The notes under the pieces were generated by a model, which made no database searches, was not told the origin of the DNA, and saw only the letters and a list, made by a program, of their open reading frames with translations. From the IMG/VR virus record IMGVR_UViG_3300031998_000059, positions 7,894 through 71,893 of that record: DNA of 64,000 bases; one strand, written 5' to 3'. Position 1 is the stretch's first letter; each line of letters starts with the position of its first letter. Source of the stretch: a virus (Duplodnaviria > Caudoviricetes). Below are positions 59,799 through 63,245 of this stretch, in pieces. The position numbers and the translations under genes were made by a program.

Positions 59799-60097
59799 GG
59801 GAATACTACGAGAACTACGAAAACGTCCAAGGATTGGGCCTCGGAGAGCTTCTCCTGTTTGGTGGAATGGAGCCCTTTATTGAAGGCGATGCAAGGCAGT
59901 TGCGTATATTGAACGCCGTATCTGACATCTGCGGGAGTTTCCAGGTCAGCACCCGTGACTTCGTGAAGCTGATTACTTATGGGGACTTCAAGAAGAGGCG
60001 CGGCATAAGCGAGGTGATGGCACTCGGTCTGAGGCTGTTCATCCTCTTCGAATGCGGTGTGGATTGGATTTCTTCTGATAACGTTAAAAGATTATGA
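59777..60097 (+). CDS. Hypothetical protein
   Basis: Overlap-coupled ORF. Confidence 0.6.
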   Translation: MDKEKLMREYYENYENVQGLGLGELLLFGGMEPFIEGDARQLRILNAVSDICGSFQVSTRDFVKLITYGDFKKRRGISEVMALGLRLFILFECGVDWISSDNVKRL

Positions 60098-60900
60098 CAA
60101 TGAAATACACCAAAGACAACCCGTTACGGGTAGTGACCCTTTTCAGTGGCTACGATAGCCAATGCCTTGCACTCAACAAGCTGAAAGCGGTATATCCGCA
60201 ATTTGACTATGAACTTGTTGCATGGTGCGAAATTGACAAAGATGCAATCGCTGCGCATAACTCCATATATCCGCAGTGGGAAAACAGAAACCTCGGTGAC
60301 ATATCAAAGACCAATGTTAATGATATACCCGACTGCGACCTAATGACATGGAGTTTCCCATGCACAGACATATCGTCTGCGGGGCGTCAGGCAGGGTTGT
60401 CAAAGGACAGCGGAACACGTTCAAGCCTTGCTTGGGAGGCGATAAGGTTGTTTCGTGCGAAGCGACCGAAATATCTTCTGATGGAAAACGTGAAAGCACT
60501 TGTTCAAAGAAAGTTTATCGGGGATTTCAAGACAATACTGCTTGAGCTTGAAGGCATGGGTTATGCCAATTTCTCGCAAGTTCTTGACGCTTCAAAATAT
60601 GGTGTAGCGCAACACAGAGAAAGAGTATTCTGCGTATCAATTCTCCGTGACCCGAAAAAACCTGAACCTTCTTTCCACTTCCCCAAGCCCTTTCCGCTTG
60701 AAAAGCGGTTGAAGGACTATCTGGAAGAGAATGCGGACGAAAAGTACTACCTCTCTGATAAGATGCTGGAGTACTTCAATCGTGTGGATGCGGAGGATTC
60801 GCTTGATGGGGAGGATACCTCGTCAGGAAACGGAACGGTGCCTGGGAATAGAGTGGATGATAATATTTTCATGGATGAAGAGGATGATATGGTCGATTAA
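60094..60900 (+). CDS. C5 cytosine methyltransferase, N-terminal catalytic part (motifs I-VIII)
   Basis: LFSGYD, SFPCTD, ENVKAL, QHRERVF. Confidence 0.9.
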   Translation: MTMKYTKDNPLRVVTLFSGYDSQCLALNKLKAVYPQFDYELVAWCEIDKDAIAAHNSIYPQWENRNLGDISKTNVNDIPDCDLMTWSFPCTDISSAGRQAGLSKDSGTRSSLAWEAIRLFRAKRPKYLLMENVKALVQRKFIGDFKTILLELEGMGYANFSQVLDASKYGVAQHRERVFCVSILRDPKKPEPSFHFPKPFPLEKRLKDYLEENADEKYYLSDKMLEYFNRVDAEDSLDGEDTSSGNGTVPGNRVDDNIFMDEEDDMVD

Positions 60901-61051
60901 AGGCTTCTACAAACGTGGGGGTGGAAGATTGTACCGCATCTACGCACCAACAATCTGCGCCACCGACTACAAGGAACCTCCATTGGTGATAGAGATAGAT
61001 GATACAGATGACAATCAACACGGAGCCGGATGGAACGTACAGGACGATTAA
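60875..61051 (+). CDS. TRD-like mini-ORF
   Basis: IYAPTICATDYKEPPLVIE. Confidence 0.65.
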   Translation: MKRMIWSIKGFYKRGGGRLYRIYAPTICATDYKEPPLVIEIDDTDDNQHGAGWNVQDD

Positions 61052-61265
61052 ATCCCAATATTTCAAGAACAGCCTCGCCAACTTCATCAGGGGCGGAACA
61101 TTCGGGGCGACCGCCGTCGCGGTGCTTGATAGTGGGGAGGATATACAGGAGCCAGCAGAACGGAATGGTGTACGACCCGATGGGGCTTGCGCCATGCCTG
61201 TGTGCGGGGCTCATAGTGGTGTGGAACCGAGAATAATAGAGTATGAAGATAATAATAGTGGGTAA
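60999..61265 (+). CDS. TRD-like mini-ORF
   Basis: TEPDGTYRTIKSQYFKNSLANF. Confidence 0.65.
   Translation: MIQMTINTEPDGTYRTIKSQYFKNSLANFIRGGTFGATAVAVLDSGEDIQEPAERNGVRPDGACAMPVCGAHSGVEPRIIEYEDNNSG
61126..61236 (+). CDS. TRD-like mini-ORF (TTG start; tail shifted at G4)
   Basis: QNGMVYDPMGLAPCLCAG. Confidence 0.55.
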   Translation: MIVGRIYRSQQNGMVYDPMGLAPCLCAGLIVVWNRE

Positions 61266-61422
61266 TGTCGGTGTGCGCCAGCGCGATAGGGTTTATGACA
61301 GGAACGGCATTTCTCCCTGTATCGGTGGTGTTAGCTGTGAGGGAGGTTACAATAACCAGCCGAAAATCATAGAGTATGGCAACGAGGAAGACAGGTGGTA
61401 TCAGAATGAAGAAGCTGATTGA
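61243..61422 (+). CDS. TRD-like mini-ORF
   Basis: QRDRVYDRNGISPCI...NQPKIIEY. Confidence 0.65.
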   Translation: MKIIIVGNVGVRQRDRVYDRNGISPCIGGVSCEGGYNNQPKIIEYGNEEDRWYQNEEAD

Positions 61423-61576
61423 GAGCGGCAAGCTCACCCGTAGGGGGGGGCAGTGTATAGACCTCTATAATATGGCAGTGTTGGATGGCATTCACATAAC
61501 CATCACAGCGAGGTATGATGACGGAAATAAATGGGTGACCGTGTATGAAGAGGATAAGAATCAGGCATTCGAATGA
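61376..61576 (+). CDS. TRD-like mini-ORF
   Basis: GQCIDLYN....GIHITITARYD. Confidence 0.65.
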   Translation: MATRKTGGIRMKKLIESGKLTRRGGQCIDLYNMAVLDGIHITITARYDDGNKWVTVYEEDKNQAFE

Positions 61577-61766
61577 TGTGGACTTGGGAATGACGTTTTC
61601 CGCAAGTCTCAGAGGGGGTATAAGGGGCTATGATGATGCAATGGCCCTGGAGACGTGCAGCAACGATTTCTTTCCTACAATCAAGTTCCTGTCCGGTTTT
61701 ACGGTAATAGTGGAGGTGGAAGATGGAAATGACAGGTGCAATGATAATGGCCATGAGGGGTCGTAG
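61545..61766 (+). CDS. TRD-like mini-ORF
   Basis: Same junction pattern as its neighbours. Confidence 0.55.
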   Translation: MKRIRIRHSNDVDLGMTFSASLRGGIRGYDDAMALETCSNDFFPTIKFLSGFTVIVEVEDGNDRCNDNGHEGS

Positions 61767-62451
61767 TCCGGACAGCCCTTCTGACAGGGTGGTGCAAGGC
61801 AAAGGAAGAAACCATCAGAGGTGTGAGTTTGGTAGGGATGTCTCAAATACCTTGACAAGCGTGGTAAAGGATAACTTTGTTGTAGAGTTGTATGGAGAAG
61901 AATGGGACGGTGGGGATATAGTCTCCCATCATAGTTCATCGGAACAAAAGATGTGTATGAAGGAATCGGGGAGCAGAGTGTTGCAGATAGGAAACATCAG
62001 GCGAAAGAGTGGGGATTTTTCAAACCCACAAGCAGGACGGATATATTCCGCTGAAGGTGTCGCTCCGACTCTGAACACCTGTGGTGGTGGTTGGAGAGAA
62101 CCTAAGATAACGGTGATTCAATATCCTCATGGATACAACAACGGATTCGAGTATAAGGATGGTGTTTGTCCAACTATAACAATATCAAACTGGGAAAGTA
62201 ATAATTTTATAAAAATGGAAGAAAAGAACAAAATCAATCTGCCACCAGAGTTGGAGGGCAAGAAATTCAGAATCCGTAAGCTCACCCCAAGGGAGTGCTT
62301 CAGACTGATGGGTGTGGCCGATGCGGACATTGATAAGATACAGGCATATCCGTTTGAGAACCTGATTGATCATCCGGCATACAGCAAGGAAGAAAAGGCG
62401 GTTGGAATGACCGACAAGGAGCTTTCCGACAGATTTTATGAGAAGAAATGA
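61723..62451 (+). CDS. TRD modules plus C5-MTase motif IX (motif X not seen)
   Basis: SNTLTSVVKDN; GRIYSAEGVAPTLNT; RKLTPRECFRLMG. Confidence 0.8.
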   Translation: MEMTGAMIMAMRGRSPDSPSDRVVQGKGRNHQRCEFGRDVSNTLTSVVKDNFVVELYGEEWDGGDIVSHHSSSEQKMCMKESGSRVLQIGNIRRKSGDFSNPQAGRIYSAEGVAPTLNTCGGGWREPKITVIQYPHGYNNGFEYKDGVCPTITISNWESNNFIKMEEKNKINLPPELEGKKFRIRKLTPRECFRLMGVADADIDKIQAYPFENLIDHPAYSKEEKAVGMTDKELSDRFYEKK

Positions 62452-63067
62452 AGGACTGGACGGGAAACAGGAAAAGCGTGTTTGCCACTCTTGGTGCAAG
62501 CAACCATAGCAAGCAGGAGAGGGAAAGCCTCGATTACTACGCAACAGAATCAAGAGCCATAGACCTGCTTGCGGCCAAATTCACAATCCCGCACAAGGTA
62601 TGGGAGTGTGCTTGCGGAGGCGGTAGTCTTAGCGACAGGCTGAAAGAGTTGGGGCATGAGGTCATATCGACTGACATCATCGACAGGGGTTATGGAGGCT
62701 TTGACGGAATATGCGACTTTCTCAGTCCGATGTTCCATCCGCAGATAGACGGTGACTTCTGCATCCTTACGAATCCGCCCTACAAGTTCGTGACGGAGTT
62801 CGTGCTCACTGCATTGGATATACTCCCATCAGGCGGCTATGCGTGTTTCTTCCTCAAGACCACCGCATTGGAGAGCCGTGGGCGCTATGAGAACATCTTC
62901 AGAAATACCCCCCCCACTATATTTTCCAGTTCATTGACAGAATCCTGTGCGCCAAGAACGGAGAGTTTGAGGATGCGAGGAAGAACCTCGGTGCAGGGGC
63001 GCAGGCATACGCCTGGATGGTATGGGAGAAAGGCTACAAAGGTAAGACGATATTGAATTGGATATGA
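62448..63067 (+). pseudogene. Amino (N6A/N4C) methyltransferase, frameshifted at C8
   Basis: ECACGGG, NPPY; C-terminus YAWMVWEKGYKG lies in the shifted frame. Confidence 0.8.
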
Positions 63068-63080
63068 AATATTATGATTT

Positions 63081-63245
63081 ATGAACGAAGAGCAATACAT
63101 CAGAGACAAGATCGAGGCGCTGGAGCAACGCCTCAGTGACCTGCTCAAGAACGAGCGCACATTCCCCCTGCTCATAGCCAACGTGCGGAGGGAGATAGAG
63201 AATGAGAGACGGAGGCTGGAGAGACTTAAACGGAAGAAATCATGA
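63081..63245 (+). CDS. 54-aa coiled-coil protein
   Basis: Read manually; ATGA-coupled to the next gene. Confidence 0.5.
   Translation: MNEEQYIRDKIEALEQRLSDLLKNERTFPLLIANVRREIENERRRLERLKRKKS

Follow-up and report, generated by a model that had tools for sequence, protein, structure and literature searches.

How are the target-recognition domains (TRDs) of a phage methyltransferase read when each lies one base out of frame with the last: as one protein, as a set of small proteins, or not at all? The question is raised by the right-hand 64 kb of a 71.9-kb IMG/VR virus record (IMGVR_UViG_3300031998_000059), called the window below, from a bovine gut (rumen) sample; the phage host is probably a Bacteroidota bacterium. 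Between positions 60094 and 62451 the window encodes the pieces of a C5 methyltransferase (C5-MTase): a catalytic open reading frame (ORF) termed alpha; five short overlapping ORFs, B to F (mini-ORFs, or minis), each with one TRD; and a beta-type ORF with three fused TRDs (G1 to G3) and motif IX. The TRDs of multispecific enzymes are modular. Comparison with related loci suggests that this is probably a split, cassette-type phage C5-MTase operon, whose TRD minis would be translated separately and dock on a core, and that this particular copy is most likely inactive.

The frame staircase

The alpha ORF belongs to PF00145 and has motifs I, IV (PC), VI (ENV) and VIII (QxRxR), and its catalytic residues (F15, G17, P96, C97, E138, N139, V140, Q180, R182 and R184) are invariant across an alignment that includes ten alpha ORFs of array loci. 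Motif IX, RKLTPRECFRLMG, lies at 62275-62313 in the beta ORF. The initial annotation, made from the sequence alone, had placed motifs I-VIII in the ORF ending at 60900 and motif IX downstream of it, with about ten TRD-like modules in between. The PF00145 match bears out the first point, and three-frame translation with tblastn and tblastx searches bears out the second: the modules are a remnant in the alpha tail, B, C, a broken cassette called C2, D, E, F, G1, G2 and G3. None of them contains an in-frame stop.

Counted as coordinate modulo 3, the frames are 1 for alpha, 2 for B, 0 for C, 1 for D, 2 for E, 0 for F and 1 for G, every step being +1. At each of the six junctions there is an ATG (60875, 60999, 61243, 61376, 61545 and 61723), one base into the next frame as had been proposed, in the contexts GAGT-ATG, GTGT-ATG, GAAG-ATG and ATAG-ATG; each unit sits +1 to the previous one because the next ATG lies within a NAT-G codon pair. 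The upstream ORF continues for 23-53 nt beyond each new ATG, likewise in agreement with the initial annotation, and in all but one of the six cases the new frame has a stop 1-4 codons ahead of its ATG. The beta ORF has no such step: G1, G2 (ATG 61951) and G3 are all in frame with the motif IX part (ATG 62215). If an array is taken to consist of an alpha ORF, at least four overlapping one-TRD mini-ORFs with their own ATGs and a motif IX-X ORF, then B to F form one in all respects except motif X.

Some details of the staircase had been overstated. A TTG start had been assigned at 61126, in C2, but it is not conserved, and C2 lacks an ATG where homologous mini-ORFs have one; a probable start at 61892 opens only a 9-codon ORF. 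Nor are the shifts uniformly directed, because C2 requires a -1 shift near 61203-61209 to finish; its homology runs in frame 1 at 61117-61209 and then in frame 0 at 61203-61250.

The shifts themselves are not assembly errors, and the staircase is real DNA, because the Logan re-assemblies of two runs, both made on the source sample itself (not on an independent one), reproduce 60000-63200 with zero indels. One junction also has a counterpart elsewhere in the window. The 14-mer GGAGGTGGAAGATG at 61712-25 recurs identically at 1203-16 (0.03 expected by chance), where the ATG at 1214 begins a DUF5675 gene (8e-29), again with a +1 step, and overlaps an upstream coiled-coil ORF by 20 nt (junction region 1203-1233). 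Such junctions thus serve as starts in this phage, since the one at 1214 precedes a real gene. The identity of the two 14-mers and the reality of the gene had both been noted before; the naming of the pair as holin and endolysin is not confirmed.

Mini-gene arrays in related phages

About 160 loci with alpha homologues, drawn from viral and metagenome contigs, were compared. The best alpha ORF identity among them is 65%. No closer relative of the window turned up: a phage collection gave a single 87-nt match, and a metagenome scan with the beta ORF as query gave zero matches. In 105 of the loci the homologue is a single fused ORF, and at least 30 are chains of at least four ORFs. The fused homologues, 470-707 aa long, have TRDs like those of the window, strung together in a single frame by ..EP.. 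linkers. Some of the chains are cleaner than the array in the window, with as many as 17 mini-ORFs (45-75 aa) that all have an ATG of their own.

The clearest example is locus L009, in a 165-kb phage record rated complete, where alpha is followed by 16 mini-ORFs of 45-72 aa and a last ORF of 182 aa. This last ORF has a helical N-terminal domain and motifs IX and X and contains no TRD. The step is +1 at 16 of 17 junctions, 15 of which have overlaps of 11 or 14 nt. The arrays of L006, L011/L099/L102/L109, L015 and L088 resemble L009. The +1 junctions follow the consensus T-ATG-ARR-MNG-ANT-RA, with a T at -1 in 44 of 45 junctions, and read ..Y-E-[ET]-[DE]-stop in the old frame and M-[KR].. in the new. 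The arrays of L093 and L165/L073 use an ordinary ATGA overlap, a +2 step. Because of these, the conserved feature is the stop/start overlap with its ATG and not one +1 shift site, and the frame staircase is the outcome of a conserved overlap design. Four phage genomes (three rated 100% complete, the other 82%) have no PF00145 match outside the array pieces, alpha and the motif IX-X ORF.

In the cleanest arrays, the N-terminus of the motif IX-X subunit is a conserved helical domain of about 110 aa (L009:7097-7420, L006:7305-7620 and L011:4523-4830) for which no family match was seen. This domain might be an adaptor that holds the TRD minis.

Conservation and exchange of cassettes

Several observations indicate that the minis are genes in their own right. 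In a library of 1.8 billion proteins, 35 homologues of mini F turned up. The majority are free-standing (52-84 aa) and align from residue 1; a few make up the N-terminal part of larger subunits, 150-240 aa long, which run on into motifs IX-X. For units C, E, F and G1 there are stand-alone minis in other arrays that match in N-terminal register. Mini-ORF C also matches fused homologues and, in register by tblastn and blastp, the minis of L095, L084 and L009, and the start of mini-ORF B agrees in position with minis of the same type in L009 and L011.

For orthologous cassettes of L006, L088, L011 and L009, the ratio of nonsynonymous to synonymous substitution rates (dN/dS) is 0.14-0.18 where dS is estimable, and for the remaining pairs the proportion of nonsynonymous differences (pN) is 0.16-0.32 against a synonymous proportion (pS) of 0.61-0.97, all pairs having been chosen by amino-acid similarity, which biases dN downward. 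The comparison shows the cassettes of related arrays to be conserved and, on these estimates, under purifying selection.

Cassettes also come and go as whole units. The near-identical arrays L011, L099, L102, L109 and L015 differ by one whole cassette, with the breakpoint exactly at the repeated junction (..YETD* / MRLIK..). In L099, L102 and L109, an HNH homing-endonuclease gene occupies the place of a cassette; at L099:5257-5742 a 162-aa HNH/NUMOD-type ORF stands where L011 has an RTLKSQYF-type cassette, and likewise in L102 and L109. Persistence of the staircase while module content varies had been proposed as a test, and near-identical phages do vary in cassettes and keep the junctions. 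An idea of concerted evolution of the junctions was dropped, because array-specific homogenisation is weak (identity 0.42-0.58 within arrays versus 0.37-0.58 between them); the cassette indels at identical repeats are retained.

Runs of at least six G or C occur at 1.58 per kb within arrays versus 0.05 per kb in the flanks, an enrichment of about 30-fold. In L157, L165, L106 and L097, nearly every cassette has a G/C tract, and many cassettes stop there. Tracts of G8-G12, many out of frame, are seen in the cassettes of L157, L165/L166, L106 and L097, and almost none in L009, L011 and L006. The arrays seem to fall into a switchable and a constitutive kind. In the window, the G8 tract of mini-ORF E is one of only two G/C runs of at least 8 in 64 kb, and in L084, the nearest array subtype, a homologous cassette changes frame at the run of Gly codons that matches it.

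Structure prediction contributed little. The AlphaFold2 model of mini F has a predicted local distance difference test score (pLDDT) of 72 and is confident only for residues 1-40, which form three strands; a Foldseek search of this model against the PDB gave no match at E <= 0.001. A natural subunit that joins an F-type TRD to motifs IX and X (P0139) gave a model with pLDDT 64 and a TRD part near 50, and is not usable. Because these models are too uncertain, F is called a TRD by position and motifs only.

A proposed three-part methyltransferase

The operon would then work as follows. The minis between the alpha and beta ORFs would each be made as a protein of their own, probably through translational coupling at the stop/start overlaps, and would dock one by one between alpha and the subunit with motifs IX-X. 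A single catalytic core could thereby methylate many sequences, and the phage would be protected from many restriction systems. In L009, L006 and L011, the TRD must come from the minis, because neither alpha nor the motif IX-X ORF has one. Free plug-in TRD micro-proteins, one of two options in the initial annotation, are thus favoured by the comparative data, whereas the other option, serial +1 frameshifting, is disfavoured.

A broader form of the proposal, about evenly balanced between true and false, extends it to the whole clade. These would be three-part enzymes with a TRD-less core (alpha plus the IX-X subunit) whose specificity is set by one or another of as many as 17 free minis of 45-75 aa; the minis would be encoded in a translationally coupled array that gains and loses cassettes at its junctions and in which, in some phages, poly-G tracts switch individual cassettes, and the copy in the window would have been disabled recently.

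Several points weigh against the proposal, in addition to the downward bias in dN mentioned above. The separate translation and docking of the minis we infer from sequence patterns. To our knowledge, complementation of a C5-MTase core by an isolated TRD is without precedent. The overlaps in the window (23-53 nt) are longer than the 11-/14-nt norm; acidic tails akin to those of this copy are also found in L097, L157, L106 and L084. Finally, if motif X (whose loss is described below) is truly essential, it is surprising that the five minis and the beta ORF are intact; it may be that the loss is very recent or that the enzyme is not inactive after all.

Alternative explanations

It may be that only two parts matter, alpha and a TRD-bearing beta in the manner of M.AquI, and that the minis are a silent store of cassettes that recombine into the expressed subunit, or inert leftovers. 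Beta-type subunits with one or more TRDs and motifs IX and X do exist (P0132, P0135, P0137, P0139 and P0147), and cassette indels do lie at junction repeats. However, conserved ATGs and tight stop/start overlaps would be superfluous in such a store, poly-G switches inside single cassettes are sensible only if those cassettes are translated, and the arrays of L009, L006 and L011 would be left with no TRD in either subunit. This explanation is unlikely.

Rather improbable, too, is an ordinary pseudogene, in which a once-fused multi-TRD gene was broken by random indels and the ATGs arose incidentally from acidic linkers (GAT-G, TAT-G). Most homologues are fused, overlapping ORFs arise automatically from any frameshift, and acidic linkers do yield +1 ATGs, as in the in-frame G1/G2 linker (61892). 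There is also decay here: two compensating shifts in C2, an apparently eroded TRD in the alpha tail, the loss of motif X and a frameshifted neighbouring MTase. Yet the ATGs in the window coincide with conserved starts of homologous stand-alone minis in many diverged phages, and the modules have stayed free of in-frame stops. A cleaner staircase recurs in genomes rated complete, as their only C5-MTase, with cassettes that appear to be under purifying selection. The cleaner ATG-led arrays, the selection estimates and the cassette swaps in relatives agree with the initial view that random decay does not account for the pattern.

The weakest candidate, and a very improbable one, is serial programmed +1 frameshifting, or four-base decoding of TAT-G and GAT-G, that fuses all modules into one giant multispecific MTase. 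In its favour, the frame moves by +1 at all six junctions here, the joined sequence ..IIE-[TATG]-KIII.. looks like the uninterrupted TRDs of fused homologues such as P0017 and P0028, and the L006 junctions end in TTT-TGA, where slippage is possible. Against it, nearly all +1 junctions carry an ATG, which a frameshift has no need of, the L093 and L165 arrays use ATGA overlaps with +2 steps, the codons ahead of the stops (GAT, ACG, AGT) are unable to re-pair after a +1 shift, the junctions have no slippery codon in common, the out-of-frame poly-G tracts, broken cassettes and HNH gene within arrays would each end a fused protein, and after seventeen shifts in a row hardly any full-length protein would be made. 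A quadruplet-decoding transfer RNA (tRNA) is ruled out, as the window has no tRNA gene, and so is an alternative genetic code, since the off-frames contain all three stop codons. Separately translated minis are favoured over serial frameshifting because of the conserved ATG arrays, the ATGA variants, the purifying selection, the whole-cassette differences and the poly-G/C enrichment.

State of this copy

The features of the locus are listed in Table 1. In the remnant at the end of alpha, the homologous stretch of L084/L085 has an ..AFTIRTAPG.. TRD core, which is here partly deleted or replaced, and mini-ORF C reads on through the broken C2 cassette.

Table 1. Features of the C5-MTase locus and the adjoining gene (positions in the window)
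Feature	Position	Strand	Evidence
Alpha subunit ORF (268 aa), C5-MTase motifs I, IV, VI, VIII	60094-60900	+	PF00145 5e-51, profile 2-226
In-frame TRD remnant, alpha tail	60805-60870	+	By-eye comparison with L084, L085
Mini-ORF B (58 aa), ..PT/AL.ATDYK.P-type TRD; +1 to alpha, 26-nt overlap	60875-61051	+	Three-frame translation
Mini-ORF C (88 aa), RTIK.QYF-type TRD; +1 step, 53-nt overlap	60999-61265	+	tblastn/blastp
C2, dead cassette, no ATG	61117-61241	+	tblastx vs L006, L009, L011, L073; three-frame translation
Mini-ORF D (59 aa), classical IVGN..RVYD..GISP..PKII TRD; +1 step, 23-nt overlap	61243-61422	+	Homologue searches, translation
Mini-ORF E (66 aa), LIESGK..CIDLYN..ITITAR-type TRD; +1 step, 47-nt overlap	61376-61576	+	55% identity from residue 1 to L006 mini
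G8 tract in mini-ORF E, in frame	61443-61450	+	Homopolymer scan
Mini-ORF F (73 aa), FSA..GG.RG..ALE..SN..PT.K type; +1 step, 32-nt overlap	61545-61766	+	35 homologues
Beta-type ORF (242 aa), three fused TRDs and motif IX part, no motif X	61723-62451	+	PF00145 profile 205-291 only
Beta subpart G1	61723-~61900	+	
Beta subpart G2	61951-62121	+	
Beta subpart G3	62122-62214	+	
Beta subpart, motif IX part	62215-62451	+	
Neighbouring amino-methyltransferase (amino-MTase) gene (NPPY motif); ATG overlaps beta stop (ATGA)	62448-63067	+	phrog_799 5.7e-39

Motif X (..GN[SA][IV].., part of the S-adenosylmethionine pocket), whose absence the initial annotation had overlooked, is missing from this copy. The Pfam match ends at 291 of 324, whereas relatives reach 322; a regular-expression scan for motif X in all six frames found nothing, and a search of the genome with the L009 gamma (motif IX-X) subunit gave a match restricted to the motif IX region. 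The tail beyond motif IX (..QAYPF..GMTDKELSDRF..) is homologous to the insert between motifs IX and X in the gammas of L165, L157 and L059, and the beta tail ends right before the ..QQYK.AGNS.. motif of the relatives, at the ATGA overlap with the amino-MTase gene. Judged from this layout, motif X is removed by the adjoining gene. A remnant of the motif was considered in the first 12 residues of the amino-MTase (62448-62485; ..WTGNRKSVF vs ..AGNSIVV) and rejected, the resemblance being too weak and possibly due to chance.

With motif X gone and cassette C2 defective, the C5 enzyme of this copy is most likely inactive, and the system as a whole is probably so; the loss of function is probably recent, because the five minis and the beta ORF are still open. 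For the same two reasons, a working version of the reshufflable methylome suggested earlier is doubtful in this phage. This locus chiefly illustrates the decay of such an operon.

The amino-MTase gene is itself frameshifted, at a C8 tract (62908-62915), and its family-like C-terminus runs in the -1 frame to the stop at 63067, so that the enzyme may be phase-variable and off here. Homologues of it in cultured phages align only from residue 13-29 on. The sample may contain more than one strain, since contig X2, from the second run, has 7 differing positions inside the gene, at 62737-62774.

Relevance and comparison with known systems

If the TRDs are free subunits, one small core could acquire many specificities by adding genes some 150 bp long, which for a phage would be an economical way to counter restriction. 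The arrays would then be a natural modular toolkit for the targeted writing of 5-methylcytosine and a further case of specificity encoded apart from catalysis, and they would offer dozens of pairs of TRD and motif, decodable cassette by cassette. A literature search of incomplete coverage found no description of TRD mini-gene arrays. New here are the junction grammar (+1 with 11-/14-nt overlaps, or ATGA), the cassette indels at junctions, the selection estimates and the loss of motif X in this copy.

The closest known relatives in design are the multispecific C5-MTases of Bacillus phages, M.SPRI, M.Phi3TI, M.Rho11sI and M.H2I (Wilke et al. 1988 EMBO J; Guenthert & Reiners 1987 NAR; both as cited in PMC8936443). 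Like the locus in the window, these enzymes and uncharacterised fused homologues such as P0017 and P0028 have a single core with several TRDs in tandem, each 40-60 aa long, inserted between motifs VIII and IX, and the likely role of the Bacillus-phage enzymes and of the system described here is the same, namely to guard phage DNA against several restriction enzymes. They differ in that all of their TRDs lie in one polypeptide and one frame, whereas here there are six frame changes with stops and five TRDs as separate overlapping ORFs, and relatives of this locus reach 17 separate minis, some with poly-G tracts.

Two-polypeptide C5-MTases such as M.AquI and M.EcoHK31I, and complementation between fragments, are established (PMC3404938). 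These enzymes, like the system envisaged here, are split in or near the variable region into a subunit with motifs I-VIII and one with motifs IX-X. They have two fixed subunits and one specificity, whereas three kinds of part and an exchangeable library of TRDs are proposed here, in a copy without motif X.

The logic of a separate specificity subunit is otherwise that of HsdS in Type I restriction-modification systems, and for C5 enzymes it would be new, not having been described before. In HsdS systems and their phase-variable or shuffling loci (PMC7672463, PMC7641763), specificity likewise stands apart from catalysis and is varied by recombination or repeat tracts. They belong to an unrelated enzyme class, with an amino-MTase and the HsdS fold, and vary by inversions, in contrast to the tandem overlapping mini-genes of the arrays described here.

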